Below, piece after piece: positions 1 to 60,100 of a stretch of DNA of 64,000 nt. Made by a program: the position numbers and the translations under genes. The first letter of the stretch is position 1. Each line of letters begins with the position of its first letter. Source of the stretch: Blasia pusilla (Eukaryota); NCBI GenBank assembly GCA_050084515.1, contig CM114271.1, positions 32,550,001 through 32,614,000 of the forward strand. Direction: 5' to 3'. Below the pieces are notes generated by a model. It made no database searches. It was not told the origin of the DNA and saw nothing but the letters and a program-made list of their open reading frames with translations.

Positions 1-59
1 GTGGCTAGGGTTGCTACATAGCAACCAAAGCCAGAGGTTGCGTCCTCTCCGAGTGAGAT

Positions 60-3000
60 CACGATGGAGACTTGGGAGCCTGTGATAGTTCTCAAGTTGA
101 TAGGAGGAGAGCGTCGGCGAGTTCATAGGTTTTTGAGAGGGCATGTCTAGTGCTTTGCCTTCAGTATGAGAGACTTGGGTATGCTAAAGGGTCTCGGGAT
201 ATGGATTGAGTCGGCTAGTGATATGCCAATCTTTCGTCGACCCTACAGGTATTCTGATATGGAGCGAGCCTTGATTCAGAGCAAGAGTCATGACTTGTTG
301 GAGGCAGTACTTGTGGAGTTATCACATGGGGAGTATGCATCTGCCACAATCATGCCGGCGAAGAAGGATATGTATGGCAATTGGACAGATAGGCGGATGT
401 GTGGAGATTACCGTCCTATCAATCGACAGACGAGGTCAGATCGGTACACCATGCCTACTCCTAAGGAGATCTTTGATGCGGTAGGGCATGTAAAGATCTT
501 CAGTACTATAGATCTTTGTACTGACTATCATCAACTTCCTATCAGGTTGGAGAACAGGGAGAAGACAATATTCAGGGGGATAGATCGGTTCGAGAAAGAT
601 TGCTTGTATAAGTGGCGGTTCTTACCATTTGGGTTGAAGAACGCGCCTGCAGAGTTTTAGATAGTGATGGATAGGATTCTGGCTGGCTTGGATTTTGTAC
701 GATGTTACATACATGACATTCTTATCTTCAGTTCCACCGTTGAGGAGCATGAGCGACACCTGGAGGAGGTGTTTCGGCGATTGCAGTTATATGGACTGAA
801 GTTACATCCAGACAAGTGTAGATTCTTTCAGGACTAGATTGAGTACTTGAGACACATCATATACCCGAGTGGGTTAGGTGTTCAGCAGACAAAGATGGAG
901 GCTATTGCGTAGATTCCACGTCCTACAGATGTGAGTCGAGTCCGAGCATTTCTTGGACTGGAAAACTTCTATCGACGGTATGTCAAGGGTTTTAGAACGA
1001 TCACAAAGTCTTTGGCCTTGTTGACGAGACTTGATCAGGTTTGGTTGTGGGGAGATGATCAGGAGCAAGCATTTCAAGAGCTTAAGGACACGTTGACGTC
1101 CTCACCCATTTTACAGAGACCGATTAGGGGTCGCCCATTCTAGTTACATACGGATTGGAGCATGTTGGGTCTAGGATCAGTGCTTACTCAGAGGGATGAC
1201 GAGGAGAGGGAGTTTGTTGTGGCTTACGCGAGCCGATCGAAAAACATTGCACAGGAAAAGTACAACTCCTACAAGGGAGAGTGCTTGGCTGCAGTGTGGG
1301 CCGTGGCACATTTCAGGAACTATTTATTCGACAACCCTTTCACACTTATCACTGATCATCAACCATTGAGGTGGTTGATGGAGTCCGACAAGCTTACGGG
1401 AAAGCTTGCCAGGTGGGCTCTATTAATACAAGAGTATGAGTTTGAGGTGGTTCATAGGCCATGCCGGCTGAACCAGGATGCGGATGGGTTGAGTCGTAAC
1501 TCATGTTCGAGTCAGAGAGACGATACAAGAGCTCGATGGCATGGAGTGAGTGATGAGGATATGGTGCCGGGTTGGCATGCATCTGCCTATCTTTGTTGGT
1601 TGACTATGGTAGGTCAGCCACAGGTGATGACTCCAATCGTGGGATTGGATGATGAGTCTTTGGATCCGGAGGTCAGTGAGGAGGCGATAGGTGGTCGTGA
1701 TATCCATGACGATGTGGAGGTTGTGGAGTTCTTGCGCATTGGCGTCATAGCGAGCACAATGAGTGCTAGGGAGCGGGATCGGATCCTACAGCGAGCTAGG
1801 AGGTTTAGGCGGGATGGGAATCACATTTTGCGAGTATGGGGAGATGGTAGGATACGAGTGGTACCTCATCCTTCTCAGCGAGCACGTGTAGTGCGACTTG
1901 CCCATGAGGAGTTGGGACATTTTGGAGTGAAGCACTTTTACAAATTTTACTCCGATTCGGTGATTGGTGGCGTGACATGCATACTGGGATACATCAGTTT
2001 GTGGCCAAATGTATGGTATGAGACAGAGTGCGAGCATCCTTCAATGCTCCCACTGCACAATTACATCTTTTTGCCGATTATGGGTTTAGGTTATCGGTGG
2101 AGTTTATACTTTGCGGGACCTTTGCCATTGACAGGGAGTCATCACAGGTACGTGTGGGTCATGGTGGAGCATTTCTCCAAGTGGATAGAGTTGGTGGCAC
2201 TACCGGACAAGGCTAGCAAGGGAACAACTTATGCATTTCTAGATCGTGTGCTTAGTCACTTTGGTGCACCAGCGGAGGTGCTTATTGACCAGGGTACCGA
2301 GTTCAGGGGAGAGTTTCAGGCCTTGTGTGATTAGGCGCTGATAGATCCGCACCACGTCCAGAGATCATCATGCGGCGGATGGGTTGGCGGAGATAGTAGT
2401 ACAGACGGTGAAGAGAGGATTGAGCAGGTATGGCTTGCAGCAAGGACAGTTGAGGGAGTGGGACCTACACTTGCCATGGTTGGCTATGGGTTATTGCTTT
2501 AGTCGGCAGGCATCCTTGGCGTCATTTTCACTATACTTTTTGCTCTTTGGGAGAGAGCCAGATTCACCGGCAGCTATTCGACGTGACATGGCGGAGGTGT
2601 TAGATCTTGATGATCCAGATGTGTGAGTACAAGCGTGTTCTCAGAGGATGGAGATTTTTCGTAGAGTTATGCCTATCGCCTTTGAGAACTTAGCTATTGC
2701 TCAGCATAGAGATACATTGAGGTACGCGACCATTTGTGGAGGAGGTTATTGTCCAGGGATTAGGAGGTTTCATCCTAGAGATTACGTGTATCTACAGCAG
2801 ACGGCACCCACAATGCTAGGTGTCACTGCAAGGCGCACAATCCTATGTGTGCGCAAGGTATTATCGACTGGAGTCCTCATGTTGGAGGGACGGGATGGTA
2901 TGGTTTGGAAGGATCATGTGCGTAATGGTGCGCCATGTCATCTTCTGAATGTAGACGGGACAATAGATCCGAGCTTGGCAGTGGTACTGCAGGCTTGATA

Positions 3001-4167
3001 TCGCGACCCTCATAATCAAAACGTCGAGCAAAACATCAGAACTCAAGTGAACTCACGCTGTGAGGTTTGCGCTTTGGAGAGGCGTTTGGAAAGGTCTCTT
3101 GGAAAAGTCTAAGAGACAAAACGCGGAACAGAGTTGTGCGTTTCATGCATTAGTGGTCGTAACCAGGAAACCTAGACCAAATGCAAGCCAAGAATTGAGA
3201 TGAGTTGAGTCTTGGGAGGTTGGTTGCCAAAGAGGTGAGAATCAGTTTGGAACACGACTAGCGTTTGGGAGAATCTGACTGTGTTTAGGACCATAACGTT
3301 GAGCTCCAAGATGAATTTGGGACAAATAAGAGCACATTGGAAAGCTGATCTTGAGACGCTTCCAACGCACCAAAGATCTCAAAAAACTCATAAGTACAGG
3401 TTGAGATATTGGCCGAAAATGATTTAGAGAGCGATCGGGTTGAGGGCCAATTGGAGAGGCCTGGGTGTCTTTACCTAAATGTAGGGGGCCCCGGAGATCC
3501 CCAGAAGTACTAGTAAGGGAGGAGTCTCTCCAAGATATCTCGGAACACGAATCCCCACTTTGGGTGCCAAACGGCGTTTCAGAGGCACGGGATGGAACGA
3601 GACTTTGGCGTTGGAACTCGAAACCCAAACCTGATCCAAGGGAGTGGACTTTGTACGCCACACTTGGATTCCAATCCGAGATTCACTTCGTGCGAGTCTT
3701 GGTGAGGAACTCATTGCATGTCCATCAGACAGTTGGAACCGCCAGGCGCGAAACGTTGTTTCAGGTTCCTGAACCGACCATAAAGTCTGTCCCAAGTCTT
3801 TCGAGATTTGCGCGTTTTGTAAACCACAAAACTAGGAAGGTTGAGCTTGATGAGAGTCCGAGACAAGAACTCGGAAAGTTAGCCTGCTGATTGATCCAAG
3901 ACCCGACTAACTAGAGTGCGTGTTTGGATGCAGATCAGCGCTGAGAGCATGACCTACTGAACGCACGCTTCCGCAACAAACAAGATTAACGTTCAAGGAG
4001 AGTAGGCGCACGACACTTGAGGTGTATATTGTGCGAATCTGCGAGGGGTGTAGCCACCATGTTGGTATGTGATGCTTGTTCTCGAGGGTGGCATATGTCA
4101 TGTCTGACCCCCCTCCCCTCTTGATGTAGTTTCCACATGAGGATGGATGTGTCCGAGATGTGTATAG
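60..4167 (+). pseudogene. Degenerate pol (RT-RNaseH-integrase-PHD) of copy 1, interrupted by the 2999-4015 insertion
   Basis: ORF fragments 166-660, 931-1143, 1162-2334, 2384-2626 and 2648-2998; PHD remnant RCILCESARG..LVCDACSRGWHMSCL..WMCPRC at 4016-4167; many stops and frameshifts. Confidence 0.9.
2999..4015. mobile_element. Solo-LTR-like insertion (~1.0 kb) with 5-bp TSD
   Basis: Starts TATCGCG (decayed TGTCG), ends CACGACA; CTTGA on both sides (2994-2998, 4016-4020); removing it restores AGLRC before the PHD; homologous to 6149-7121. Confidence 0.88.
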
Positions 4168-4392
4168 GGTAGTAGGTCATGTCAGAGAGATGTGATATTT
4201 TCTATCTGGAGTTAGGGGGATCCAACTGCCAATTAGGGGGGCGGTTGTGTGATCTCCATGTATATGTATGAGTTGATTTTTGTATATGTGTGGATTGACC
4301 CGTATGTGGGGAAGATCGGTGTTGTGTGGTGTAGATGTGACCAGCGATGTATGTTGTGTAGCGATATGTATGCGCACGACAAGTTTGGTTTT

Positions 4393-4695
<303 letters not shown>

Positions 4696-11002: not shown

Positions 11003-12001
11003 TTAGGGAGATGGCTCTCACTAGCAATCTTTCTCATTTTGAGCACTATTTAGTACTCATTCTTTTAGGTTTAGGTTGGAGCTTAAGTTATATTCTTGAT
11101 TCCATTATGGTGGAGGGTGGATGTGGGTTGATGACTGTATGTAGATTCGAAAGTGGAGTGGATCGTGTGATCCATTTTTTCTTTGATTTTACATGTAGAA
11201 GATTGACACGGGCATGGGGATTTTTTTGTGATTATCTGGGCGGCCAAGTTGCCTCACTTAATAGCCCCTTGGAGAAGTTTTTGATAGGTTGTGTGTTTTT
11301 CTTTCATTCGGAGGGTCGTATACAAAAGCACTTCCCATTTTTTCATAGATTTTTATTATTTGCGGATTGACGTAGAGTATCAGAAGAGTATGTGGATCAA
11401 CCCTCAATTGTAGGATAACTTAGTAATGTCAAATGGTGAGGTGAGAAATCATGCAACATAAATTCGATAGAAGTAAAAGAGCGAGAGAAACAAAAAATTA
11501 GGGTTGGGCTCAATCCTACCCATAGAGGGATCCCAAGGGAAAGGGCGGAGTTTTTTGTGGAGGAATTGCATGGCAATGCCCGAAGAGGCTACGTGGCATA
11601 TATGCAAGTGCAATTGTAAGCAAATGCACTAAATACATACAAAATACGACACATGAAGATAGATGGGTCATGCAAGCCCAAAGTGGGTAACTGCAAATGT
11701 TTGCTAGACGGAGAGCTTCTAACTACGCCCTCTACATGTATGTCTCATTTTCTTTTGGGGTTGGGAAGGCTATCCAACAAACATCGTAGTTGGTATATTT
11801 ATGCCCATCGTTGATGAAATCTTTATTTTGAAACACATATTTTTCCATTTGTGAGAAGTGATATGGGTTTTTTTTGTTCCTCCTTGTGTGATCTGACAAT
11901 CAAATTATTCCTCTTGTATGACAATAAATGCTACCAATCCAAACCCCCCTCCCCCATTTTCCTCTATAGTAGTAATACAAACAAAAATGCCTCTAAAGGG
12001 A

Positions 12002-12384
12002 TGTCACGTCTTTTAGGATAGATCGGTGAGATCTAGTAGAGCGCCTTCTTGAGTAGCCAAGGACAAGCTCAATTGGTCGAGGATGACCTGCTGAGGCCGC
12101 GGAAAACCTGAGAGAGCAGGTTTCCCCTTTGTTTCGGCTTATTTGGAGCCATATTGAGAAACTTACTATTTTAGGTAAACACCATTTTGAGTATATGATC
12201 AACTTTCTATTTTTGGTAAGTGTCTTTTGACCTCCTACCTTAGGTTAAGAGCCAAGGATGTGACTTGGGAGAATAGGTTACCATGAAGAGAGTTTGGGAG
12301 AGGGGAGGGGTATACCTAAAGGAGATAGAGTTTGAGAGCTCATTCTTTCTTTGTTGAACCTCTTGGTCCCTTACCTTGTGAGTG
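12002..12384 (+). repeat. Repeat A1 of copy 2 (3'-truncated by deletion)
   Basis: Direct repeat of the 5' part of A2 (starting 20383); homologous to 54893-55270. Confidence 0.92.
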
Positions 12385-13433
12385 ATATATTGTGTGGATC
12401 CTTTGGTTGCCATTGCCGCCGTTACGGAGTGGAGGGTCTTCCATGACGTTCGTTGATCCTCTGACTTGCATCGCCACCATGTACTTTGTTTTGGCCACCA
12501 CCGTCATCACAATTTCGTCATCAACTAGTGATGAGCGATGACCTCTAGTTATGGTGTTTGAGTTGTGATTTCATGCTGCTATGTTGTGATTGGTAGCCAC
12601 TCGACGACAATCGAGTACCGTGTCGTGATGCTCGTAGCCGCAACGTGCCGCCGATTGCCGCGCCGTGCCGCTCATGGTCGCACCGCACCATCTCGATCAC
12701 GGAGCCGCACCGTCATTGTGGATCAGACTATGGGTTTATTGTTGATTGAGGAGGGTATGCCGCCGAGTGCCTCATCCCACCATCGAGGGCTGTGTCGTTC
12801 GTAGCCGTTCCGTGCCGCCTGCAACGCCGCATCGTTCCGCTAGAACCACACTGTCTATGGAGGAGTTTTGAGCAGCGTCAGTACGGGAGGAGTATGACTT
12901 GCTGATTAGAGGAGTTTAGTATCCACGACTGAGTTGGGGTTGAGATTTGCAGTTGCTAAGGAGCGACATCGACATGTGTTCACGTTACCCATTATGGTCC
13001 TTTATCCTGCACGTGTGAGGGATTCTGGGATTTGGATAGTGTATTTGGGGATACTGGGTGTGTGGATGCTGAGAGCATCATTTATGTATGTAGTTTAGGT
13101 GACATAGACCTGTGTGGGATGTCCGGAGTTGCGATTAGGATGTCGATGAGATGATAGCCTGGTCGATTTGCCCCACCACGCCGCTTGTTGCCGCACGTTA
13201 CACGTCTCAGGGAGGGAGAATGTAGATCAAGTGCCGCATGTTTGGGATGAATGATTGAGGGATTATTTGCGATGCGAGAGTGATCAGGTGAGAGGGGCAC
13301 GAGGGTCATCACGGCGTCTGTTCGGGACTTTGAGAGGCGAGGTGTTGAACTCGAGAGTAGCTCTAGAGGTTTTACGCGGAGTGGCGCGAGGTTCCGAGGG
13401 TCTCCATGTGAGGAACCACATCGACCTCCTTCA

Positions 13434-16400
13434 GTGTCATTGTCAGACATGGGAGAGGGTGTAGAGGAGTTTGTGAGCACATTGTCACATATTATGAGTG
13501 GTCCTACCGGTTGGGCGTACGAGATGGACGATCGGGGTAGAGGACCGCGTAGGTTTTCAGGTGCAGTAGGTACGATTGAGTTGCACGATTTCATAGCAGA
13601 GTTTAGGAGTTGGCGCGAGTCCCAGTGGGCCAGGAACTCTAGAGAGTTCAACCCGTTTACAACATGGAACGGTATATTCGAGCATTTAGAGGGGGCGCCC
13701 ATGGACGATTACCATGAGTTCTCTTAGAGATATGCACGTGAGATCGAGGCGAGGAGGCTCTACTATGACCCATATTATGTGTCATGGATGGAGCCATTCC
13801 CAGATGAGGAGGAGGAGTCAAGAGAGGCTACTTTCTCTTCCACTAGTGACGTTTTAGGAGGAGTCACTCGCACGGGAGCAGTTGCACCGTGTAGTCGGGT
13901 TTGTCCTAGGTTCAACCCTGTGGTTGAGTTCTTTGCTGAGTTCAGGTCAAGCTACCAGGGGGTACGGACATAGAAGTTGCAGAGCATCCATGATTTCCAG
14001 AGGCGCCCGGGTGAGAGTTTGAGTGAGGCTTACACTCGCGTGCGCCGGTTGATCAATGTTACTCAGGGGGTGACAAAGGCTCAGGCTATCGAGTCATGGT
14101 CGCGATGTTGGACCACACCCTGCGGACACGGGTGCGGGAGGGGGTGCTTCTTATGAACACCTCCCCTACGTTGAGAGATGTTTTTAGGACCACCGAGAAC
14201 ATTGAGCGCAACATGGCGGAGGAGAGCGTAGCCACCATGGGTTATGGGCGAGAGCAGTCGCGATTGTCACGCACCAATTGCGGCAAAGAACGTGGACTCT
14301 GAGATAGGTCGACTGTGGCACCATGAGCTCAGGGAGGATACCGGGAGGCCGTGCCGCAGAGACCTGCACCTTCATATGCGGCTCAGCAATAGCCGCTTAC
14401 TATTACTTGTTGGTCATGTGGTGGAGCCCATCATCAACGTGATTGCACTCGTCAGGGTCATGGACGTGTGCCTCAACATGGAGGAGGAGATGGTGCTGCA
14501 CCAGGAGGTTATCAATGTGACTATTTTAAGAGGTATGGTAATAAAATCAGCAAGTGTTTCAGTTTACATCCTGAGTTACGTCCGGACTAAGGGCCAAAGA
14601 GGGCACCAGAGCGACTAGCCGGTCCGGGTGGGCTAGAGATCGTGCACTAGGTGGTCCCGTCGGGGGATGAGGAGCTGGAGTTGCCCAACACGGTAGTGGA
14701 GCTGCATGTGGAGGAGGTAGAGTCCTACCACCTAGACAAGTCAAGGGAGATGGCGGACGTGAGGCTAGGATGGTTGCTCAGATACATTAGCTACAAGAGC
14801 AGATTGCCGCTATGGCATTGAGATTACCGCATGCCGGATCCGTGGCATCAACATCATATGGAGCAACTAGAGATATGGAGGATCTTGATTGGATGTGCGG
14901 GGTTGCCCTGATGGAGGCAGCTGCAGTTGTGACGCGTGGAGCAGCACAGAGTTGGATCCACAGCGAGGGGAAGCCAGGAAACAGACTAGGCTTCCTCAGT
15001 CTTTTACGTTGTCCGAGGCGATGAGGACCCCATCGATGGGTCCTAATCAGAGTTCTTGGAGAGTTGGTGATGTTGTTGGTGTGCAGGCATGGAGGGCGAT
15101 GGGAGAAACAAGTGCGACGACTCCTATTGTTGATGCTCAGGAGGGACATGTGTCAAGCACGTTGTTGGGGGCGGCGCTCCTTTATTTTCTGCTTCCGATA
15201 TTATGACATTGGGGGGTACGCCCGTTGAGGCTTTTCGGCTGGCCGCTACGCTATGTGAGCGTGGAGTTGGAGTTCCTGCATCACGTTCAGAGGTGATTGC
15301 AGTGGAGGTGATGGACTTGCCCTTGGAGCCAATGTCCGAGCCGTCCACGTCAGATTCATGGCAGACTATGGCTACTAGGATGGCGGAGATGCCCGCTAGA
15401 CCTGCGATAGAGCGTGCCATGGCTTCTCCTGGTGTTGTGTTGCTGGATAACGGAGGAGAGGTCTTCCAGTTGGTGAGTCTTGGAGGTAGAGCTTTTTGTC
15501 CGCAACGCATCTTGTTGGATTCAGGAGCGCAACCCCTAATTTTGGGGAAAGCATCATTCAGAGGATTGGGCTTGACGAGAGCCGATGTGGAGCATTGTCC
15601 ATTGCGGATATAGACATCCTTGGATGGAGCAAGTACCACACAATATATCACCCAACAAGAGGTCGTGATGAGGATTCGCCCGGGACATCCTACAGATGAG
15701 TCCATGGTGTGAGCCAAGGCGATAGTGACTGATGGAGAGTCCTACGACGTCTTGGTTGGTGGAGTAGCGTTATACCCGATGGGATTTGCCCTGGATTACT
15801 GGGAGGAGTCAGCGTCCTACAAACCATGATGGCAGTCAGGTGATTGGCGCCTTAGCTCATTACCCGTTCGATTCATAGGTGTAGTGATCGAGCAACGACC
15901 AAGAGAGATGGCAACCTTAGTAGCATTTAGTAGTGCCATCACTTGGCCTAGTGATTTGATTGAGGGACATATCCATGCAGAGGATACTCCCGTTCCTGAT
16001 ATTTCTATGGAGAGGAGTTTTATGGTAGCCGCATCATTCCGTAGAAGAGAGGTGCCGTTGTGGGGCTCGACTGAGGAGCTTTGACGATTGGCAGATGAGC
16101 ACGTGCAGACCGTGTGGAGCGAGGCGTTTGCACCAGAGTATGACGGGTCTGAGGAACCCGAGGTAGCAGGGAGTGCTACGATGACACCCTTGGATACCAC
16201 AACCATTGTGTGGTGTAGCTCGGAGGAGGGTATTTGAGTGTAAGATCTCTTTGGAGGGATTAGCACCGGGTTAGGTGCTATTTTGCAGGCAGGAGTGCGA
16301 GTACAGCAGTACGTGTATGTGGGGAGTGATGATGTTGCAAGGCGCGTCTCACTATGACATGTCGCGCAGTTACGCCTACGTTTTCCCGACTTATTTTCTG

Positions 16401-19400
16401 CATCCGCATGTGGGTACCAGAGTTCTCTACCGAGGGATATTTTGTAGTTGAGGGCGTAGGATTTAGAGTGGGTAGGGACCATTGATTTGGTCATTTTCGG
16501 TTAGCCATGTCGGGGCCAATGGAGTGTTGGACGAGGCAGTGGGTTGGCTGACACTCGATCCAGGTTTTTTTGGGAGATGTTGAGGGTCTTACGGTAGTTG
16601 CAGGAGCACCAATCTTGTTCTCCAGCCTACATTCTAGAGAATGTGCCAATCTTAGGAGACTCCAGGTCACGGGTGGTGATAAGTGCTCATCAGGTGCGTG
16701 CCTGGATCGGCTCAACAGTGTTCTTGGATGCGGCGAGTGTAGGTTCTAGAGCCCATCGCCCGCATCTATGGTGGACCAACTTGGTGCCCCATGCGGTGTT
16801 ATGGAGGGCGTATGGGAGAGTGGAGCATCCCTCCCATTTGTCAGTGGATTCCATTTTGGATCCAGGTCGTCGATCACAGGCAGTGAGGCACGATGATCGA
16901 CCACCATTGATTGTGGTCAACAGGGTAGGCAGGCCGTGGGCAGCCTTGCTCACGTTTGTAAGTTTTCGCGCTTCCTATGCATACAAGGAGTTTGCTCCTA
17001 GCTTGGTTTGGGATGACCAGGTTCAGTGGTTGGTGGAGCCCAACGCCGACAAGAGAGAGAGAGAGCGATGGGATTTCCCACAGGAGTGATGGCAGTACCG
17101 TTAGTGTCAGAGGCATTACGACGCCATGTCTTGGGTCAAGCGATGGACCTGAACTACTTGACATGGATCCTCAGCTTGGGAGTGGCTTAACAACGTAAAA
17201 TGAGATCGCGATAGATCGCATCGGTTGCGTTGGTGAGCCCCATGCCTACCAAGATGGTGGAGGCAGTGGCTGGGGGCGAGACCCGAGGAGACCTACACAC
17301 CAGGGGAGATCGAGAGAGACACCCTTGGACTTCTTGGGATGTTTTGAAGGTACGCCAGGAGATGATAGCCACAACATCGAGGGTGGTTACAGACACTACA
17401 CGTGGAGTTTGTAGTTGGTTGTAGGAGAGTGGCCGAGTGTTGTTGTTCGAGACAGGGTTGCACCATAGCAACCATCAATACCGTGGCGGAGAGTCCTACC
17501 GTAGTCACGATGGAGACTTGGGAGCCAGATATGGGCCCTAGGTTGACAGGAGGAGAGCGGCGCCGGATACATCAGTTCCTCAGGAGTTATAGGAGCTGGT
17601 TTGCGTTTAGCATGGAGGATTTGGGTACGTTGAAGGGACCCGGGATCCGCATTGAGTTGTCGAGTGATACGTCGATCTTCCGACGATCCTACAGGTACAG
17701 TGATATGGAGAGGGCTCTGATTCAGAGTAAGAGCCAGGACTTGGTCGGAGCAAGACTAATGGAGATGTTGCATGGGGAGTATGCATCTGCCACTATCATG
17801 CATGGCAACTAGACGGATAGGCGGATGTGTGGGGATTACCGACCTATCAATTGGTAGACAAAGTCCGATAGGTATGCCATGCCTACCCCTTAGGAGATCT
17901 TTGATGCGATTGATCATGCAAAGGTCTTCAGTTCATTGGATTTGGGAGCAGGCTGCCTATCAGATTGGAGGACAGGCAGAAAACGGCATTTTGGGGCATC
18001 GATCCTCACGGGAAGGATTTTTTGTACTAGTGGCGGTTCTTACAACTAGAAAGGACGCAGGGGGTGTCCTTTCTAGTTGCACATAGATTGGAGCATGTTG
18101 GGGCTTGGAGCGGTGCTCACCCAACATGATGATGAGGGTAGAGAGTTTGTGGTGGCTTACGCTAGCCGCTCGAACAACGCTGCAGAGGCGAAGAACAGCT
18201 TGTATGAGGGTGAGTGCTTGGCTGCGATGTGGGCTGTCTCACATTTCAGGTGTTACTTATTCGGCAACCCTTTACCATCATCACTGATCATCAACCACTG
18301 AAGGGGTATGGAGTCCGACAAGCTTAGAGGGAAGCTTGCGAGATGGGCTCTTTTGTTGCAGGAGTATGATTTTCAGGTGGTTCATAGACTTGGGACACTC
18401 AACCAAGATGCAGATGGGTTGAGTCGTGACCCATGCCTGAGTTAGCGAGATGCGACTGGAGCTTGATGGCATGGAGAGAGTGATGAGGAGTCAGTGCTAG
18501 GATGGCACGCGTCAGCCTATTTAGGCATGTTGGCTATGGAGAGCCATAGTGTGGAGACTTCGATGGCAAGGTCTAGTGGAGAGTCCTTGGATCCCGTGGC
18601 CAGTGAGGAGACGACAAGTGGTCAAGATATTCATGATGATGGAGTAGTCTTGGAGTACCTTCGTACTGGTAGCATTGCGAGCACCGTGGGTGCTAGAAAG
18701 CGGGATCGGATCCTACAATGGGCCAGACGGTTCCGTTGGGAGGGGACACATATTTTGAGGGTTTGGGAGGATGGTATAGTACGCGTAGTGCTGCATCCTT
18801 TGCAGAGAGCACGACTAGTGCAACATGCCCACGAGGAGTTGGGTCACTTTGGGGTGAAGCAAACGTACAACTTGCTCCAGATTCAGTATTGGTGGCGAGG
18901 CATGCAGACTAACGTTCAGCAGTTTGTTGCAAGGTGCATGGTGTGTGATCAGGTCCGAGCATCGTTCAATGCTCCGACACCACAGTTGCATCCATTACCG
19001 ATCATGGGCTTAGGGTATAGATGGAGTTTGGATTTTGCAAGACCTTTGCCTTTGAAAAGCGTCACAGTCATTTTGTGTTGGTGATGGTCGAGCACTTCTC
19101 AAAGTGGATCGAGTTGGTTGCATTGCCTGACAAAGTGAGTGAGGGAGTAGCTTATGCCTTCCATGACAGAGTGTTAAGTCATTATGGCGCACCGGCTGAG
19201 GTGTTGACAGACCAGGGTACCGAGTTTCGCTGTGAGGTCCAGGCCTTGTGTGATTAGGCGCTGATCGACCATCAAACGACTTTGCGAGATCATCCTGAGA
19301 CGGATGGATTAGCGGAGAGAGTTGTGTAGACGGTGAAGAGGAATTTATGCAAGTATGGCTTGCAGAGAGGTCACCTAGGAGATTGGGACCTCCAATTGAT

Positions 19401-20067
19401 GTGGTTGGCGATGGGATACAGATTTAGCAGGCAGACATCCTTAGCTTCTTTTTCATGGTACTTGCTACTTTATGGTCTAGAGGCAGATTTACCTTCGGCC
19501 ATTCGTCAAGATGCTGGTGAGGTGCTGGACCTTGATAACCCAAATGTATGGATTCGAGCATGTTCTCAGAGGGCTGAGTTGTTTTGGAGAGTGATGCCCA
19601 TGGCGTTTGAGAACTTGGCAATTGCGCAACATAGGGATACGTTGAGGTAAGCGACTATTCGCGGTGGTGGTTATCGACCAACTATCCGGAGGTTTCATCA
19701 GAGAGATTATGTCTACTTGCAGCAGACGGCACCGACAATGTTGGATGTGACTGGAGGACGCACTATCCTGAGAGTGCGTGACGTTTTGCCATATGGTGTT
19801 CTCTTGCTGGGGGGACGCGATTCTATGGTATGGAAGGACCATGTGCGTAATTTTGCGCCATGTCACCTTCCTAACATTGATGGTACATTAGATCCGAGCT
19901 TAGCAGTAGTTCCTGCACGCTTGCGTTGTATGTTGTGTGGTTCTGCCCGTGGTGCGGCTATGATGCTAGTATATGATGGATGTTCGAGAGGTTGGCTTGT
20001 GGCATGTCTGACGCCATCTCTCACTAGGGTTCCTCGGAGACGATGGATGTGTCCCAGATGTACATAG
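13434..20067 (+). pseudogene. Degenerate gag-pol of copy 2
   Basis: Gag (RFSGAVGTIELHDF; CWSCGGAHHQRDC), protease ILLDSGAQP, methyltransferase, RNaseH, integrase (HEELGH..CMVC; LTDQGTEF) and PHD (CMLC...WMCPRC). Confidence 0.9.
16190..17190 (+). pseudogene. DNMT3-like C5 cytosine methyltransferase domain, copy 2 (disrupted)
   Basis: DLFGGISTG, DLVI..PC, YILENV, RAHRPHLWWTN, GFPTGV and HVLGQAMD motifs with stops. Confidence 0.88.
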
Positions 20068-20253
20068 AGGAGATAATAGGGAGGTTTCAATTCCTACTTT
20101 TCCTTTGACATGGATGATAGGAAGGCGACTAACAATGGGGCCACCTGAGCACCTGGCCTTTTGCTCTTAGCGTTCTAGAGATGTATGTCGTGGTAGGTAG
20201 AGATAGAGGGCTATCTGGAGTTAGAGGGACCTAACCACCAACTATGGGGGCGA

Positions 20254-20380
20254 TTGGAGATATTTTAGTACTTCTTGTCTCGTTTTTTGGATGCCATGAG
20301 TTAGCATAGGATCGTGCGTGTTTGTGTGTGTGTTCGGTGACAGCGATGTATGTTGTGTAGCAATGTGTATGCGTACGGTA
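20254..20380 (+). repeat. Repeat B1 of copy 2
   Basis: Direct repeat of 20901-21029; follows the G-tract ATGGGGGCGA. Confidence 0.93.
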
Positions 20381-20382
20381 AC

Positions 20383-20899
20383 TATCACGTCTTTTAGGAA
20401 AGATCAATGAGATCTAGTAGAGCGCCTTCGTGAGTAGTCGAGGACAATCTCAATAGGTCGAGGATAATCTACTGAGGCCGCGGGAAACTTGAGAGAGCAG
20501 GTTTCCCCTTCGTTTCGGCTCATTTGGAGCCATATTGAGAAACTTACTATTTTAGGTAAGTACCATTTTGAGTATATGATAAACTTTATATTTTTGGTAA
20601 GTGGCATTTGACCTCCTACATCAGGTCAAGAGCCAAGGAGGTGACTTGGGAGAATAGGTTACCATTGGAGAGAGTTTGGGAGAGGGGAGGGGTATACCTA
20701 AAGGAGAGAGAGTTTGAGAGCTCATTCTCTCTTTGTTGAACCTCTTGGCATAAGGTGGCGGACCTATGGTCCCTTGCCTTGTGAATGTAACCCAAGCCTC
20801 TCATTAGGAGAGTGGGTTTGGTTTGACATGAGAGAGAGAGTGCACACCTTTGAGAGCTATGGTTTGAGATGGTGTCGAGAGAGATTGGATCTTACTTTA
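20383..20899 (+). repeat. Repeat A2 of copy 2
   Basis: Repeat of A1; full-length match to 54893-55380. Confidence 0.93.
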
Positions 20900-20900
20900 A

Positions 20901-21029
20901 TTGGAGATATTTTAGTACTTCTTATCTCGTTGTTTGGATGCCATGAGTTAGCATGGGATCGTGCGTGTTTGTGTGTGTGTGTTCGATGACAATGATGTAT
21001 GTTGTGTAGCGATGTGTATGCCCACGATA
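20901..21029 (+). repeat. Repeat B2 of copy 2 (3' terminus)
   Basis: Repeat of B1; ends CACGATA. Confidence 0.93.
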
Positions 21030-21033
21030 GGGG

Positions 21034-22222: not shown

Positions 22223-22226
22223 ACAC

Positions 22227-22332
22227 TGTCGTGCGAATCCACATCGTCATACAACATACATCGCTGACATACCATACGCACATACATACATAACATAGAC
22301 GAGAGTATCCACAAACGCAAGTGTACCACAAC
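22227..22332 (-). repeat. Repeat B2 of copy 3 (3' terminus)
   Basis: Near-identical to 22704-22808. Confidence 0.95.
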
Positions 22333-22696
22333 TGAAATCCGTGAAAGACCTACTGTCATAAAACACGTTTACAATCACATACAATCGAGCCAAACCCACT
22401 CCACGATGGGAGAATCCAGGTTAAGCTTGGAAACACCATAGCCAAGAGCTCTACTCACTACCAAGGCTAACTCCCAACGAATAACAGGCTCAACTCAAAG
22501 AATGATCGTTCTTTGAGGGCAAGCCACCTTATATCCTCCAACCTAAGAGCGGGCCCTACTAGGAAAGTCACCCCAAGTGAGTAACCCCAACCCTATGTAT
22601 GGAACCACATCTCTACCAAGCCACTATGATCCTACATAAGGAATGGCCTCTACCAAAGACACCATACTCTACGACATAATCCGTATGGTCATGACA
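22333..22696 (-). repeat. Repeat A2 of copy 3
   Basis: Near-identical to 31587-31956. Confidence 0.95.
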
Positions 22697-22699
22697 ATT

Positions 22700-22808
22700 T
22701 GTCGTCGTGCGAATCCACATCGTCATACAACATACATCGCTGACATACCATACACACATACATACATAACATAGACGAGAGTATCCACAAACGCAAGTGT
22801 ACCACAAC
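22700..22808 (-). repeat. Repeat B1 of copy 3
   Basis: Near-identical to B2; preceded on the sense strand by TTAGGGGGGCGA (22809-22820). Confidence 0.95.
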
Positions 22809-22980
22809 TCGCCCCCCTAACTGGCGGTTAGGTCCCTCTAACTCCCAGGTAGCCCTATACATCTACTACATGCTATACACCTTCTTGGGTGCCGAATCAG
22901 AAGGCCGGGTGCTAGGTTGCCCCATCGTTAGTCGCACATCTGTAATCCATATCATGCAAAGATCAAGTCATCTACCTCTC

Positions 22981-29990: not shown

Positions 29991-31586
29991 ACCGTCGGAA
30001 GTGGAAAAGGTAGCCGATACCTAAATCACTCCGTGTGAAACCACCACATCCGCACTACGGTCCCCAACCAGACCACCCGACAAACTCGTGATGACCAACG
30101 CCGATGCCGCACCACCACCAAATTACCCAAGTGACGCCGATGTCGCTCTACTATTGTAGCTCTACTAGCTATGGGTGTAGGCAATCTAACCTCTCATCAC
30201 CACAAGAAGTCTCCCACAGTCTATTGGTCATCACTCCAGCCCCACTATCAGTAGCACACAGGAGTAACACTACTCCGAAATCAACGCGTAAACCCTAACA
30301 ATGGGCGGCAAGCAAGAAGCACGATGGAGGGGATCCAAACACGGAAATCCAACGACAACCCTCCAATCGCAAATGGAAATCAAGGTAACACAATCCACCA
30401 AACGTGGTGCCCCTCGAATCCACAAAACCCACCACACAATTCTAACGCATAATAGCTACTCGCCGGCCTGGTCGATGACATGCTAGTTTAACGCGCAAAG
30501 ACCTGAAAATATCACTGAATGGAGAGGCTACACCGCACTATGCGCTAGAGGTACATCAACCAAAAACCTGAGATGCATAAAGCGCCTAACACATCTCCGA
30601 ACAAAGACCAAATGAGCTACAATAGTCTATGCACCTTTGGCATAGTTAAGAACTCGGCATTAAGCGCCCTCCAGCGAGAATAGCCCAAAGATGGGTGACA
30701 GTTATGCAAAACTCAAATCCCAAATCCTGCAAAAATTTCCTCACGCCCAAGCAAGCAAGCAAGCTTGCTTGCTTGCTCCTTGCTCCTTACTCCGCCTCTC
30801 TCGCCCCGAGCTACCACGAGTTGCCTCGAAGCCTCGAATGCCGAGAAGTGCTCGAGACATGCCCGTTCTCACACGCTCGCCATGCTTCGCTATGGAGAGA
30901 GGTCCAACCAGGGCGCCCCAATGGGATAGGCGTCTCCAACAATGAACGAGTCACCAACCAACCAGCCCCTCCGATCCCGCCCACCATAGCGGACCTTGAG
31001 CTAGTCCGCGAAATTTCGATCAAAATTACTTCACAAATACGTGACCGAAATCAAATCTGTTTCGATCAGAATTCAATTGACCACCATAGCTATCTCTCCA
31101 TAGAAAATCAGCTACAACCGAGCTCAGACTCGAGCTAAAAATCAAACAAACTTGTCTGTCCATACACCTCCGAATCGCAAATCCAAAAGCGCTTCGCCAA
31201 GTTTCATGCACGCAGAAATCCGCAACGCTCCACACACTCGGCAGATAGATTCACGGAGATCACAATATGAGTAGCAACAGAACCTCTCACCCGATCTGGA
31301 TGAACTTCAACACGCTTCGCGACTCCAAGCTCTCCACATCGAAAACCGCCGAACACGACCAGAATCTTCAATGCTTGATAACTTCCAACTCCTCGACGAA
31401 ACCGCGATCTACAGCCGCGTTGAAAGCTCTCAAAAGGCGCTTCTTTCCCAACAAACGCGCACCAGATTCACACCTCCAACATAGGCCACAAGCCACAAAC
31501 ATCCACGGCTGAGTACACAATCGGCCCTAACCAGATCCTCTTGATCTACAATCGAAGCTACTATCGATCTACTCCGGTTCTTTGAG

Positions 31587-31956
31587 TGAAATCCGTGAAA
31601 GACCTCTTGTCATAAAACACGTTTACAATCACATACAATCGAGCCAAACCCACTCCACGATGGGAGAATCCAGGTCTAAGCTTATGGAAACACCATAGCC
31701 AAGAGCTCTACTCACTACCAAGGCTAACTCCCAACGCACGCACAAAGCTCAACTCAAAGAACTGATGTTCTTTGAGGGCAAGCCACCTTATATCCTCCAA
31801 CCTAAGAGCGGGCCCTACTAGGAAAGTCACCCCCAAGTGAGTAACCCCCAACCCTATGTATGGAACCACATCTCTACCAAGCCACTACGATCCTACATAA
31901 GGAATGGCCTCTACCAGCACACCATACTCTACGACATAATCCGTATGGTCATGACA
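31587..31956 (-). repeat. Repeat A1 of copy 3 (5' terminus)
   Basis: Repeat of A2; not followed by B on the sense strand. Confidence 0.95.
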
Positions 31957-54892: not shown

Positions 54893-55380
54893 TGTCACGA
54901 TTGTTAGGATAGATCGGTGGAATCTAGCAGAGTGTCTGCACAAGTAGTGGAGGATATGCCCAAGAGGTCGAGGATGAACTGTTGAGGCCTAAAGAAACCT
55001 GAGAGAGCATATTTTCCCTTCGTTTCGGCTCATTTGGAGCCATATTGAAGAACTTACTATTTTAGGTAAGTACCATTCTGTGTATATGATCGACTTTCTA
55101 TTTTTTGTAAGTGACCCTTGACCTCCTACATCAGGTCAAGAGCCAAGGAGGTGACTTGGGAGAATAGGTTACCATGGAGAGAGCTTGGGAGAGAGCTTGA
55201 GAGCTCATTCTCTCTTTGTTGAATTTCTTGGCATGAGGCGGCGGAGCTATGGTCCCTTGCCTTGTGAGTGTAACCCAAATCTCTCATTAGGAGAGTGGGT
55301 TTGGTTTGACATGAGAGAGAGTGCACACCGTTGAGAGCTATGGTGTGTGATGGTGTAGAGAGAGATTGGATCTTACTTTA
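54893..55380 (+). repeat. Repeat A1 of copy 4
   Basis: Collinear with copy 2 A2 up to GATTGGATCTTACTTTA; not followed by B. Confidence 0.92.
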
Positions 55381-57149
55381 CAAAGAGAGAATGAGAGAGT
55401 GAGAGAGCTACAAGGAGGAGCTCGCTAGTCACTTGCTATTTTTGCAGGTTGGGGACCGTGTTTCCCGTTCAGCGGCTCATGGGAGTGCTCACCGGAGCAA
55501 GGGCTCCTTTGATTGTTCTTTGCATTTGCCGATTTTTTGTGTGGAAGAGTGGCGCGCGAAAGCGCTGCCCAATTTCTGATAGGGATTGATTATGGGGGCG
55601 GGTTGTCCCATGCCGGTGCTCTCGAGAGCACCATGTAGCTTGCTGATTTGTAATTTTACAGGTTTTACATTTTGGTTGGGAGAAATCAGCACGGAAGCGC
55701 TGCCAAATTTTGTGTAGGAGAAAAAGATATTGGAATTTACGACAGTCCCCGTCAATTTTTATTGGAATGTCCAATTCCAAAAAAATTGAAGCCGATGTAG
55801 ATCTTGAAGCTTTGCACGTTGTGCAACAAACGGTGCACAATTTGGAGTTGCGAGTAAAAAGTTAAGGTCAATCTTGCAAAACTGCTATTGGTAGGCAATT
55901 TTTAGGGTTAAATTGTTCAAACCCTAAACTAGCCGTCATAGTCACCGTCATTGATCAATGGCCAACAGTCAACCGTCACCATCAACGGTCAATTGTCATC
56001 CTCAGCCATCAACTGTCACCGTTAACGGTCCGTTGTCATCATCAACGGTCCACGGTCCAACGGCCACCGTCGGCCGTTGCCGTTGCCTAGCGTTGCTCAG
56101 AGCCGCATTCGGCCCTTGTCCACCCTTTGGTTGCCATTGCCGCCATTACGGAGTGGAGGGTCTTCCACGACGTTCGTTGATTCTCTAACTTGCGTCGCCA
56201 CCACGTACTTTGTTTTGGCCGCCACCGTCATCAAAGTTTCGTAGTCAACTAGTGATGGCAGATGACCTCCGCTTATGGTGTTTGAGTTTTGATTTCATAC
56301 TGCTATGTTGTGATTGGTAGCCGCTCAAAGATGATCGAGTACCGTGCTGTGACGCCCGCAGCCGCAACGCGCCGCCGATTGCCACGTCGTGCCGCTCGTG
56401 GCCGCACCGCACTGTCTCAATCGCGGAGCCGCACCGTCATTGTGGAGTGTGGGTTTATTGTTGATTAAGGAGGGTATTCCGCCGAGTGCCGCATCCCACC
56501 ATCGAGGGTCGTGCAGTTCGTAGCCGTTCCGTGCCGCCTGCAACGCCGCACCATTCCGCTGGAACCGCAATGTCTATCGATGAGTTTTGAGCAACATCTG
56601 TACGGGAGGAGTATGACTTGCTGATTGGAGGAGTTGTCTCCATGACCGAGTTGGGATTGGATTTGCAATTGCTGAGGAGCGACATCAACATGTGTTCAGG
56701 TTATCCATTATGGTCCTTTACCTTGCACGCGTAAGGGATTCTGGGAATTTGGTAGTTTATTTGGGGATATTGGGTTGTGTGGATGCTGAGAGCATGATTT
56801 ATGTCTGTGGTTTTGAAGACATAGACCTCTGTGGGATGTCCGGAGTTGAGGGTAGGTTGTCGATGAGATGATAGCCTAGTCGATTTGCCGCACCACACTA
56901 CTTTTTGCCCCACGTTACACCTCTCGGGGAGGGAGAGTGTAGATCGAGTGCCGCATGTTTGGGATGAGTGATTGAGGGATAACTCGCAAGGTTGAGAGTG
57001 ATCATGTGAGAGGGGCACGAGGGCCATCACGACGTCCTTTCAGGATTTTTAGAGGAGAGGTAATGGACCTGATAGTAGCTCTTGAGGGTTTACCCGGAGT
57101 GGTGCGAGGTTTCGAGGCTCTCCACGTGAAGAACCACCTCGATCTCTTT

Positions 57150-60100
57150 TAGTGTTGTCTTCAGACAAGGGGGAGTGTGTAGAGGAGTTTGTGAGCACAT
57201 CGCCACACATTGTGAGTGGTCATACCAGTTGGCCATACGAGATGGACGAACGGGGTAGAGGACCGCCTAGGTTTCAGGTGCAGTAGGCACGATTGAGTTG
57301 CACAATTTCATCGTAGAGTTTAGGAGTTGGTGCGACTCCCAGCCAGCCAGGAACTCTGGAGAATTCAACCCGTTTATAGCATGGAACGGTATGTTCCAGA
57401 ATTTAGAGGGGGCGCCCATGGACGATTACCATAAGTTCTCTCAGAGATATGCACGTGAGACCAAGGCGTGGAGGCTCTACTATGACCCACATTATGTATC
57501 ATGAACGGAGCCATTCCCAGATAAGGAGGAGGAGTCAAGAGAGGCTACTTCCTCTTCCACTAGTGACGTTCTAGGAGGGATCACTCGCACGGGAGCCGCT
57601 GCACCGTCTAGTCGGGTTCGTCCCAGGTTCAACCCTGTGGTTGAGTTCTTTGCTCAGTTGAGGGCGAGCTACCAGGGGGTACGGACGGAGAAGTTGCGGA
57701 GCATCCACGACTTCTAGAGGCGCCCGGGTGAGAATTTGCGTGAGGCTTACACTCGCTTGCGCCGGTTGATCAACGTTACTCAGGGGTGACAAAGCCTTAG
57801 GCTATCCAGTCATGGTATGCAATGTTGGACCGGACCCTACAGACACGGGTGCAGGAGGGGGTGCTTCTTATGAACACCTCCCCTACGTTGAGAGATGTTC
57901 TTAGGACCACCGAGAACATTGAGCGCAACATGGCCGAGGAGAGTGTATCCACCATGGGTTCAGGGCGAGAGCACTCACAATTGCCTGCACTACCTGTGCA
58001 ACAACATGGACTCTGAGATAGGTCGACTGTGGCACCACGAGCTCAGGGAGGATACCGAGAGGCCGTGCCATATAGACCTGCACCTTCATATGCCACTTAG
58101 CAACAACCGCCTACTATTACTTGTTGGTCATGTGGTGGAGCCCATCATCAGCGTGATTGCACTCGTCAAGGTCATGGACATGTGCCTCAGCATGGAGGAG
58201 GAGATGGTGTTGCACCATGAGGTTATCAATGTGACTATTGTCAGAGGTATGGTCATACACGCGCCATGTCTTTGATTTTAAATCCTGAGTTACGTCCGCA
58301 CCGAGGGCCAGAGAGGGCACCAGAGCGAGTAGTTGGTCCGGGTGGGCCTAGAGATCGTGCACTAGGTGGTCCTGTTGGGGGACGAGGAGCTAGAGTTGTC
58401 CGACACGGTGGTGGAGCTGCCCATGGAGGAGGTAGAGTCGTACCACCTAGATGCGCCAAGGGAGACGTCGGACGTGAGGCTAGGATGGTTGCTCAGATAC
58501 ATCAGCTACAAGAGCATATTGCCGCTATGGCATTGAGATTACCCAATGTCGGATCTGTGACATCGACATCATATGGAGCAGCCATAGATATGGAGGATCC
58601 TGGTTGGATGTGCCAGGTTGCCCAGATGGAGGCCGCCGCAGTTGTGACGGATGGAGCAGCCGCACAGTTGGATCCACAGCGAGGGGAAGCCAGGAAACAG
58701 ACTAGGCTTCCTTAGTCTTTCACGTTTTCCGAGGCAATGAAGACCCCATCGATGGGTCCTTATCAGAGTTCTTGGAGGGTTGGTGATGTTGTTGGTGTGC
58801 ACGCACGAAGGGCGAAGCGAGTGCGACGACTCCTATTGTTGATGCTCAGGAGGGGCATTTGTCGAGCACGTTGTTGGGGGCGGCCACAATTGTGTACCGC
58901 GCTCCTTTCTTTTCTGCTTCCGATGTTATGACGTTGGAGGGTACGCCCTCCGAGGCTTTTGGGCTGGCCGCTACGCTATGTGAGCGAGGAGTTGGAGTTC
59001 CTGCATCACGTTCAGAGGTGATTGCAGAGGAGGTGATGGACCTGCCCTTGGAGAGGATGCTCGCGTTGTCCACGTAAGATTCATGGCAGGCTGCGGCTGC
59101 TAGGATGGCGAAGATGCCCGCTAGACCCGCGATAGAGCGTGCCATGGCTTTTCCTCGTGTTGTATTGCAGGATAACCGAGGAGCAGTCTTCCAGTTGGTG
59201 AGTCCCAGAGGTAGAGCTTTCAATCCGCAGCGCGTCTTGTTGGATTCAAGAGCGCAACCCCTTATGTTGGGGAAAGTGTCATTCAGAGGATTGGGCTTGA
59301 CGAGAGCCGATGTGGAGCGTTGTCCATCCCGGATACAGACATCCTTGGATGGAGCGAGTACCATACAGTACATCACCCGAAAGGAGGTCGTAATGAGGAT
59401 TCGCACGGGACATCCTACAGATGAGTCCGTGGTGCGAGCTAAGGCGATAGTGACTAATGCAAAGTCCTACGACGTCTTGGTTGGTGGAGCAGTGTTATAC
59501 CCGATGGGGTTTTCCCTCGATTACTAGGAGGAGTCAACGTCCTACAGATGAGGATGGCAGTCAGGTGATGGGCGTCTTAGTTCATTACCCGTTTGATTCA
59601 TAGGTGCAGTGATCGAGCAACGGCCAGGAAAGATGGCGACCTTAACATCATTTAGCAGTGCCATCATTTGGCCTAGTGATTTGATTGAGGGACATGTCCA
59701 TGCGAAGGATACTCCCGTTCTTGACATTTCTATAGAGAGGAGTATTATGGTAGCCGTATCATTCCGTGGAGGAGAGGTGCCCTTGTGGGGCTTGATTGAG
59801 GAGCTTCGACGATTGGCACATGAGCACATGCAGACCGCGTGGAGTGAGGCGTTTTGCATCGGAGAGTGACAGGTCTGAGGAACCCGAGGTAGCACGGAGT
59901 GCTACGATGACACCCTTGGATACCACACCCATTGTGTGGTGTATCACGGAGAAGGGTATTCGAGTGTTAGATCTCTTTGGAGGGATTAGCACCGGGTTAG
60001 CTGCTGTTTTGCAGGCAAGAGTGCACGCGCAGCAGTACCTGTATATGGAGAGTGATGATGTTGTGAGGCGCGTCTCACTACGACTTGTGGCGCACTTACG

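Follow-up and report, generated by a model that had tools for sequence, protein, structure and literature searches.

We analyzed 64,000 nucleotides of the genome of Blasia pusilla (assembly GCA_050084515.1, contig CM114271.1, positions 32,550,001 to 32,614,000; hereafter the window, whose own numbering is used throughout). The window contains four copies of one retroelement family of about 9 kb with split direct repeats. In one of them a first-pass annotation had flagged a short site near position 20381. Our main conclusion, to which we assign a probability of roughly 55%, is that this site is the uncut integrase attachment site of a Ty3/gypsy-type element. It is a near-palindrome of the form ..CGACA, 2 or 3 nt, TGTCACG.., at which head-to-tail cDNA would be opened. 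The attachment site appears to lie inside the part that reverse transcription duplicates, namely inside U3, and would be copied into both long terminal repeats (LTRs) made by reverse transcriptase (RT). With A and B denoting the two parts of the split repeat and x the spacer, the LTR for integrase would be A..B with inverted TGTC..GACA tips, and the LTR for RT would be B-x-A.

The four copies were delimited by comparing the window with itself by blastn. Copies 2 (12002-21029, plus strand) and 3 (22227-31956, minus strand) are complete; copy 1 (1-4381, plus) is cut by the start of the window and copy 4 (54893-64000, plus) by its end. Copies 2 and 4 are 87-88% alike, and similarity is about 71-75% between copies 1 and 3 and between either of them and copies 2 and 4; therefore the window holds three subfamilies. 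The self-comparison showed the layout A1-internal-B1-x-A2-B2 in copies 2 and 3, that is, in two subfamilies about 71% alike. In copy 2, A1 (12002..12366, left terminus TGTCACG at 12002) and A2 (20383..20899, which starts TATCACG) align over 12004-12366 and 20385-20748 (92%, E 2e-148). B1 (20253..20380, ending ..GCGTACGGTA) aligns with B2, which forms the right terminus (20900..21029, ending ..GCCCACGATA), over 20253-20380 and 20900-21029 (91%, E 1e-44). In copy 3, with all features on the minus strand, A1 occupies 31588..31956 (left terminus TGTCATG at 31956), B1 22700..22809 (ending ..CACGACGACA), A2 22334..22696, and B2 with the right terminus 22227..22333 (ending ..CACGACA). The alignments here are 22333-22697 against 31587-31957 for the A pair (95%, E 1e-158) and 22228-22333 against 22704-22809 for the B pair (99%, E 2e-47). 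Counted as substitutions only, identity of the A pair and the B pair is 92.1 and 92.2% in copy 2 and 98.1 and 99.1% in copy 3. The two pairs thus diverged equally within each copy (Fisher p 1.0 and 0.69), as is found for LTR pairs made at one time. No B was found 5' of A1 at any of the three left ends in the window; the left end consists of A only, and the right end of B-x-A-B.

In this split repeat the flagged site marks the B1|A2 boundary, where a B end (..ACA) meets an A start (TGT..). In copy 2 the plus strand reads GCGTACGGTA (20371-20380), then the spacer AC (20381-20382), which is the centre of the flagged site, and then TATCACG (20383-20389). The sense strand of copy 3, which is the minus strand, reads CACGACGACA (22709-22700), AAT as spacer (22699-22697) and TGTCATG (22696-22690). 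These are the letters that the first-pass annotation had quoted for both copies. The undecayed form that it had assumed for copy 2 occurs in other places, since the right end of copy 1 reads GCGCACGACA (ending at 4381) and A1 of copy 2 starts with TGTCACG (12002). In both complete copies the two halves of the junction match the true termini of the element. The annotation had further proposed that the boundary is a stored copy of the end-to-start junction of the integrated element, and the anatomy agrees. The short junction motif as such is no rarity: the window contains 6 matches where 3.27 are expected, and 6 or more turn up in 14 of 100 shuffles. What makes the junction significant is that it lies at the repeat boundaries and that relatives conserve it; the motif alone does not.

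The ends of the elements are sharply defined. The left ends of copies 2, 3 and 4 all begin with TGTCA(C/T)G at the same base, each beside an unrelated flank. The right ends of copies 1, 2 and 3 likewise all stop at the same base with ..CACGA(C/T)A, again with flanks that are unrelated; two read ..CACGACA and the decayed third ..CACGATA. The termini are thus TG..CA with the short inverted repeat TGTC..GACA, as for Ty3/gypsy LTR elements. Copy 3 is flanked by GTGT on both sides (22226-22223 and 31960-31957, 4 of 4 bases). Copy 2 has GGGA on the left (11998..12001, plus strand, the left half of a putative target-site duplication) and GGGG on the right (21030-21033), with 3 of 4 bases matching. 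These flanks, which come from two complete copies only and lie in GT-rich DNA, fit a 4-bp target-site duplication; Ty3/gypsy elements have duplications of 4-6 bp.

The layout might alternatively have no special function and reflect rearrangement after insertion, by unequal recombination or nested insertion, of ordinary LTR elements, the junction being a by-product. All four copies are indeed old and damaged, and copy 1 lacks A2-B2. This explanation is nevertheless hardly conceivable. The same layout with base-exact breakpoints occurs in the two divergent subfamilies, passages of a report on Klebsormidium nitens describe the layout there as well (PMC5890265), and the junction is kept as a perfect palindrome in the distant relatives treated below.

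Next we consider the enzymes. The 137 sense-strand open reading frames (ORFs) of at least 55 aa from the four copies were scanned against Pfam. The only families found were, in their order along the element, the C-5 DNA_methylase, RVT_1, RT_RNaseH/RT_RNaseH_2, Integrase_H2C2, rve and PHD. From RVT_1 through RT_RNaseH(_2) and Integrase_H2C2 to rve the order is the same in all copies and is that of Ty3/gypsy pol; the integrase is followed by a PHD finger, not by a chromodomain. PF00145, the DNA methyltransferase (DNMT) family, is matched upstream of RT with E 3e-8 in copy 4 and E 1e-5 in copy 3. The catalytic residues D1275, D1335 and E1370, with D,D-35-E spacing, are invariant in 12 intact relatives.

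The best ORF, the RNase H-integrase ORF of copy 1, was used as query in a protein search, which gave 153 proteins at E <= 1e-20 among 3112 candidates; 120 of them are listed. Among the matches listed, liverworts provide the named proteins most similar to the query (Calypogeia, 61% identity; Marchantia, 57-69% over part of the length), followed by proteins of K. nitens (38-44%) and then of Closterium and chlorophyte algae. A DNMT domain is present in 16 of the 120 matches listed, a PHD finger in most and rve in nearly all. The order DNMT-RT-RNase H(-integrase) of the window is also that of the Marchantia proteins P0040 and P0062 and of K. nitens P0044, the last of these with the integrase. The element is thus of the 'Gypsy-DNMT3' type, with a C5 DNMT in a Gypsy polyprotein together with DIRS-like repeats.

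A second domain order occurs in the clade: the alignment of the 12 relatives has DNMT-like motifs between RNase H and integrase. One such polyprotein, P0064 (contig L001, 3595-9516), has no Pfam DNMT match at E 1e-5. The junction palindrome is present with both domain orders.

The domain content bears on the possibility that the element moves in trans by a mechanism of the DIRS type, with a circle integrated at the B|A boundary by a tyrosine recombinase that is encoded elsewhere. The integrase would then be vestigial. Split direct repeats are otherwise known from the tyrosine-recombinase elements PAT, Ngaro and VIPER, as passages of two reports describe (PMC4157794, PMC6681497). We regard this route as highly improbable. 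Phage_integrase, the tyrosine recombinase family, matches 0 of the 137 ORFs, and its Pfam entry PF00589 is found in 0 of the 120 matches listed, nearly all of which have rve; the DD35E residues are invariant, and the TG..CA termini and the flanking repeat of 4 bp speak for a DDE integrase. Integrase is therefore a plausible enzyme for the junction: DDE integrase domains are present, a tyrosine recombinase was not found among the 137 ORFs, the ends are TG..CA, and the flanking repeat matches at 4 of 4 bases in copy 3 and at 3 of 4 in copy 2.

The position of the priming signs indicates where the ends of the cDNA should lie. A run of G residues stands directly 5' of B1 in all three subfamilies. 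It lies inside a conserved stretch, and the B sequences that follow it differ. The run reads TTAGGGGGGCG in copy 1 (4233-4243, plus) and in copy 3 (22810..22820, minus), and TATGGGGGCG in copy 2 (20243..20252, plus). It resembles a polypurine tract (PPT), the primer site of the plus strand. At the other end of the internal region, a stretch like a primer-binding site (PBS) follows directly 3' of A1 in both copies that keep this region, and it is complementary to a segment inside A. In copy 4 it comprises 15 nt (55381..55395, plus) and pairs with 55204-55218, 177 nt before the end of A; in copy 3 it comprises 10-11 nt (31577..31587, minus) and pairs with 31762-31752, 176 nt before the end of A. 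The sequences of the two pairs differ, and their place is the same. The observed complementarity was reached by 0 of 2000 leader shuffles in copy 4 and by 4 of 2000 in copy 3. Other positions of the same copy reached it in 0 of 8530 cases for copy 4 and, at 10 nt, in 14 of 9270 cases for copy 3. A2 of copy 2 contains the stretch complementary to the PBS at 20721-20735. TATA-like boxes are located 28-30 nt upstream of the complementary stretch, namely TATACCTAAA at 20693-20702 in copy 2 and TATAAG at 31792 in copy 3. Minimum-energy folds pair the PBS-like stretch with its complement in copy 4 (z -4.8) and copy 3 (z -1.4). The start of the folded segment was chosen by hand, so the folds serve as illustrations only. 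Reading of the sequence revealed no PBS of the TGG type after A1, and the window contains no tRNA genes.

With a PBS-like stretch at the end of A and a G-run at the start of B, the end of U5 would coincide with the end of A and the start of U3 with the start of B. The strand-transfer logic of reverse transcription in LTR elements is established knowledge. Ordinary strand transfers between ends so placed would give a cDNA of the form B-x-A - internal - B-x-A, the ends of which are not TG/CA; they should be B-start and A-end, not A-start and B-end.

This arrangement bears on the proposal of the annotation that the junction templates the regeneration of both ends. In an explanation of that kind, similar to the one for the DIRS-1 internal complementary region (ICR, also called the 'internal circle junction sequence'), the RNA or cDNA would lack the outermost bases of A1 and B2. 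B1-x-A2 would be the template or splint that restores both ends, and a linear cDNA from A-start to B-end with 1-2 additional bases would be trimmed by integrase. The junction does hold both ends, a spacer of 2-3 nt is what trimmed bases would leave, and passages of a study of DIRS-1 report that its ICR is experimentally essential and model it as a circle junction (PMC7192593). We consider it unlikely here. The PBS-like and PPT-like signs are at A-end and B-start, not at the junction, and our reading of the sequence found no purine tract before A2 and nothing resembling a PBS after B1; in addition, the exact A2|B2 joint would be left unexplained. The proposal thus holds in so far as the junction supplies both ends. 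It probably does so by being cut; the role of a splint is less likely, since the priming signs sit elsewhere.

The attachment-site reading accounts for the whole layout as follows. Transcription would start inside A1 at the stretch complementary to the PBS, about 30 nt past the TATA-like box. The 5' end of the RNA would prime the minus strand at the PBS, as in self-priming of the Tf1 type, and the G-run would prime the plus strand. Ordinary strand transfers would then yield a linear cDNA with B-x-A as LTRs. As its ends, B-start and A-end, are not TG/CA, the U5 end would be joined to the U3 start as in a 2-LTR circle, and this would create an exact A|B joint. Integrase would cut just one of the two palindromes, in each strand after CA, and the 2-nt centre would leave the normal 5' overhangs of 2 nt. 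Finally the opened molecule would be inserted with a 4-bp duplication. The product would be A-int-B-x-A-B, and the palindrome that escaped cutting would be the flagged junction. Indeed, A-int-B-x-A-B is the circular permutation that results when the end of A is joined to the start of B and the molecule is then opened at ..ACA-x-TGT.. of one LTR. The joint made from the cDNA ends is more likely to be A2|B2 than B1|A2. The annotation had also suggested that the spacer represents the nucleotides removed by integrase processing, which is plausible and compatible with a spacer of mostly 2 nt. Retroviral integrases cut the palindromic LTR-LTR junction of 2-LTR circles, as two studies report (PMC1180852, PMC1905944).

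The A2|B2 joint joins the end of A to the start of B exactly to the base in both complete copies. In a variant of the model, RT itself would make the A|B joint and no circle would be ligated. An extra template switch or displacement synthesis would produce a linear three-LTR cDNA, and integrase would use the A-start of its first palindrome and the B-end of its last. An exact joint would be expected of templated synthesis more than of end-joining, and the PBS and PPT positions would be the same as in the model above. However, only two joints are seen, standard reverse transcription appears to offer no known template with A-end beside B-start, and precise 2-LTR junctions are also common in retroviruses. 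We judge this variant improbable.

To place the junction in a wider context, genome contigs were scanned with the alignment of the 12 related polyproteins. Five contigs were returned (L001-L005). They are eukaryotic Gypsy-type retroelement contigs found in metagenome-assembled genomes of prokaryotes (Minisyncoccia, Halanaerobiaceae, Mollicutes, Halorubrum), a placement that is likely to be due to binning contamination. L002 and L003 end just past pol and are uninformative for the junction. All three loci that extend past pol show a G-run, a B of 56-114 nt and then ..ACA-GC-TG(TCACG). In L005 the G-run is followed by a B of 56 nt and ..GACGTGACA-GC-TGTCACGTC.., and the junction is a perfect palindrome of 20 nt. 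L004 has a B of 58 nt after its G-run and then ..CACGTGACA-GC-TGTCACGCC.., with a perfect palindrome of 16 nt. L001 has a B of about 114 nt after the G-run, followed by ..CGCACGACA-GC-TG and the end of the contig. In an alignment the junction core is common to these loci and to the two junctions of the window, and the A start TGTCACG is that of copies 2 and 4. Of the five junctions, two from the window and three from the related loci, three have GC as spacer, one has AC and one AAT; the spacer is thus 2 nt long in four of five. The sequence that follows A in L004 shows homology to the gag side of L002 (tblastx 1.7e-29). L004 therefore reads pol-G-run-B-x-A-leader-gag, an order that is expected if B-x-A is the unit repeated by reverse transcription.

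Two further features of these contigs are recorded here. In L001, positions 9887-9900 hold a second motif like a B end (..CACGTGACA, then GC). It precedes the junction at the end of the contig by 465 nt, and no matching A start comes after it. In L004, a candidate priming pair (4707-4722/5061-5076, 15 of 16 nt) has a geometry unlike that in the window and was rejected as evidence.

Several points weigh against the attachment-site reading. The mechanism in its seven steps is derived from the anatomy of the elements, of which the window provides two complete copies and two junctions, and all the copies are dead; the longest stop-free sense stretches in copies 1-4 are 396, 205, 234 and 277 aa. 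The model predicts that non-functional insertions of the form A-B-x-A-int-B are equally frequent, and there is none among the three left ends here. Retroviral 2-LTR circles are generally treated as dead ends. The spacer differs in both length and sequence between the two junctions of the window (AC vs AAT). In copy 3 a T before A1 matches the last base of the spacer; a 2-nt spacer can be read in this way, but it costs the exact duplication. The B1 tip of copy 3 also has 3 extra nt (GAC) relative to B2, reading CACGACGACA where B2 has CACGACA (22700-22709 vs 22227-22233); beyond the tip only 1 of 107 aligned bases differs. This terminal difference could result from slippage or could preserve a trace of the process that formed the end. 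Copy 2 lacks the PBS region: a deletion has removed the final ~150 bp of A1 together with the PBS-like stretch and the ~740-bp leader, which copy 4 keeps (12366-12400 vs 55381-56123), so that copy 2 in its present state could not have primed reverse transcription. The fold of copy 3 is not better than those of shuffled sequences (17 of 200), and it is subject to the hand-chosen start. Among the relatives, L005 did not reveal an inverted pair of the PBS type. Duplicates of A or B were found in 0 of the 5 related loci; these are collapsed short-read contigs, which carry no information on split repeats, target duplications or A|B joints.

The architecture of the element is already in print. KnitGypsy-Dnmt3 of Klebsormidium (de Mendoza et al. 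2018) is described, in passages of that paper, as a Gypsy-DNMT3 element with the DIRS repeat structure A-coding-B-A-B and Gypsy domains (PMC5890265). It follows trivially that B1|A2 as an end-to-start joint is in print too. The name 'Gypsy-DNMT3' is also used in a preprint (bioRxiv 10.64898/2026.05.21.726589). The parts of the text and the three supplement files of PMC5890265 that we consulted contain no termini, target duplication, PBS/PPT, junction analysis or mechanism for the Klebsormidium element. A search of the literature available to us for this mechanism in integrase-bearing elements gave nothing beyond the same paper. New here are the TG..CA termini, the putative 4-bp target duplication, the PPT-like G-run before B1 and the candidate PBS of the self-priming type after A1. 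The kinship with KnitGypsy-Dnmt3 is at the level of the protein: both have a Gypsy-type pol with a C5 DNMT in the polyprotein, and K. nitens P0044 has the order DNMT-RT-RNase H-integrase, whereas the K. nitens proteins among the matches listed are only 38-44% identical, compared with 57-69% for liverwort proteins.

Among known systems, the element resembles Ty3/gypsy elements in the order of pol, in the TG..CA ends and in the candidate priming sites, PBS-like beside the 5' repeat and PPT-like beside the 3' repeat; unlike them, it does not have one identical long terminal repeat at each end. With members of the DIRS order (PAT-like elements including Toc/Kangaroo, Ngaro and VIPER) it shares the layout A1-ORFs-B1-A2-B2 and a B1|A2 that is the end-to-start joint, as described in passages of PMC4157794, PMC6681497 and PMC7192593. 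DIRS elements, however, have a tyrosine recombinase and no DDE integrase, while the reverse is true for the element in the window, which also has TG..CA ends and a 4-bp flanking repeat. In DIRS-1 the ICR (Cappello 1985; Malicki 2020, PMC7192593) likewise places both outer ends side by side and stands for the circle junction, and it is essential there. The same passages give DIRS-1 inverted terminal repeats and an ICR that is complementary to the ends, with a presumed role as a splint for single-stranded cDNA. The junction in the window, in contrast, is a direct copy between direct repeats and more likely a cleavage site.

The junction of retroviral 2-LTR circles (PFV, HIV-1) is, in passages of PMC1180852 and PMC1905944, a palindromic ..CA-spacer-TG.. 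joint that a DDE integrase can cleave to processed ends, as we predict for the element in the window. The retroviral joint arises when the ends of the cDNA are joined, and the provirus does not contain it, whereas here the junction is a permanent internal part of the element, and joining of the cDNA ends would yield A|B. The spacer also differs, with 4 nt in the retroviral junction vs 2 nt here. Self-priming is known for Tf1/Sushi and for the plant lineages Tcn1 and TAR, according to passages of PMC6317226. The likeness to Tf1/Sushi would consist in a candidate PBS beside U5 that would pair with the start of the element's own transcript, not with a tRNA, as the complementarity suggests; the differences are a PHD finger rather than a chromodomain and the split repeats. 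DGLT-A, a gypsy-like element of Dictyostelium considered as a possible further case of split LTRs, was dropped from the comparison, as passages of PMC5006619 and PMC6101501 show an ordinary LTR/PBS/PPT layout.

Until now, split direct repeats have counted as a hallmark of retrotransposons with a tyrosine recombinase. Their occurrence together with a DDE integrase, TG..CA ends and a putative target duplication indicates that the repeat topology is independent of the enzyme. Most likely it depends on the integration of a circular or head-to-tail form at an internal site. We suggest, as a tentative generalization that falls somewhat short of even odds, that a widespread Gypsy clade of the green lineage replicates obligatorily via a head-to-tail DNA, similar to a 2-LTR circle, that is opened by a DDE integrase at a built-in palindrome. 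The RT unit (B-x-A) and the integrase unit (A..B) would then be circular permutations of each other. This claim draws on the window and on three unrelated environmental contigs. If it is true, DNA forms that are regarded as dead-end by-products are a productive intermediate in this lineage, and an internal palindrome is the normal substrate of a DDE integrase. It would be a natural case of the long-abandoned idea that circles are the precursors of integration. It would also provide a mechanistic bridge between LTR elements and the split-repeat DIRS, Ngaro and PAT elements, in which a different enzyme may produce the repeats through the same topology. The model predicts three classes of insertion, A|B joints that are made anew with each insertion and a start of transcription at the PBS-complementary stretch. 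For annotation it means that LTR finders will place the limits of split-repeat elements wrongly when they rely on two identical terminal repeats.

The remaining parts of the four copies are as follows. The internal region of copy 2 (12367..20242, plus), delimited by Pfam matches and by homology to copy 4, contains many stop codons. After an unassigned 5' part it encodes a C5 DNMT-like segment (~16598-17089), RT (~17369-18086), RNase H (18077-18301), integrase H2C2 and rve (18467-19257) and the PHD finger (19651-20067). The DNMT-like segment is assigned by homology to copy 4, where DNA_methylase matches. In copy 4, A1 (54893..55380, plus, left terminus TGTCACG at 54893) and the PBS-like stretch are followed by the leader and the internal region (55396..64000), cut by the end of the window, with DNMT at 59796-60626, RNase H at 61718-62245, rve at 62866-63156 and PHD at 63672-63998. 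The leader of copy 4 contains a run of degenerate short repeats (55930-56070) built on CAACGGTC or CCGTCA-like units.

Copy 1, cut at the start of the window, comprises an internal region (1..4243, plus) with RT, RNase H, integrase and PHD and a single B (4244..4381, plus), which ends with GCGCACGACA and is directly followed by unrelated DNA. Its right end is thus of the A-int-B type, without x-A2-B2. Several routes could lead to such an end: the other palindrome may have been opened, a one-LTR form may have been integrated, or B1 and B2 may have recombined later. Copy 1 also carries an insertion of about 1 kb (~2997-4010) inside the sequence coding for the part ahead of the PHD finger: the other copies are homologous up to 2997, and PHD-coding text is found again near 4030. 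An ORF of 148 aa in this insertion has no Pfam match.

Outside the elements, 31 ORFs gave no match in the Pfam scan. A pair of direct repeats of about 270 bp (5034-5292 and 10732-11002, 74% identical, 5.7 kb apart) encloses ORFs without a Pfam match in an AT-rich stretch (GC 31-38%). The pair may represent the two LTRs of an element that is old and unrelated. A few bases past the right terminus of copy 1, positions 4385-4695 are occupied by a long compound microsatellite made of (GT)n and then (AG)n. The sense strand of every copy is much richer in G than in C. In the intervals 1-4000, 12000-22000, 22000-32000 and 56000-64000 the GC skew is +0.18 to +0.30, and -0.21 to -0.27 for the copy on the minus strand.

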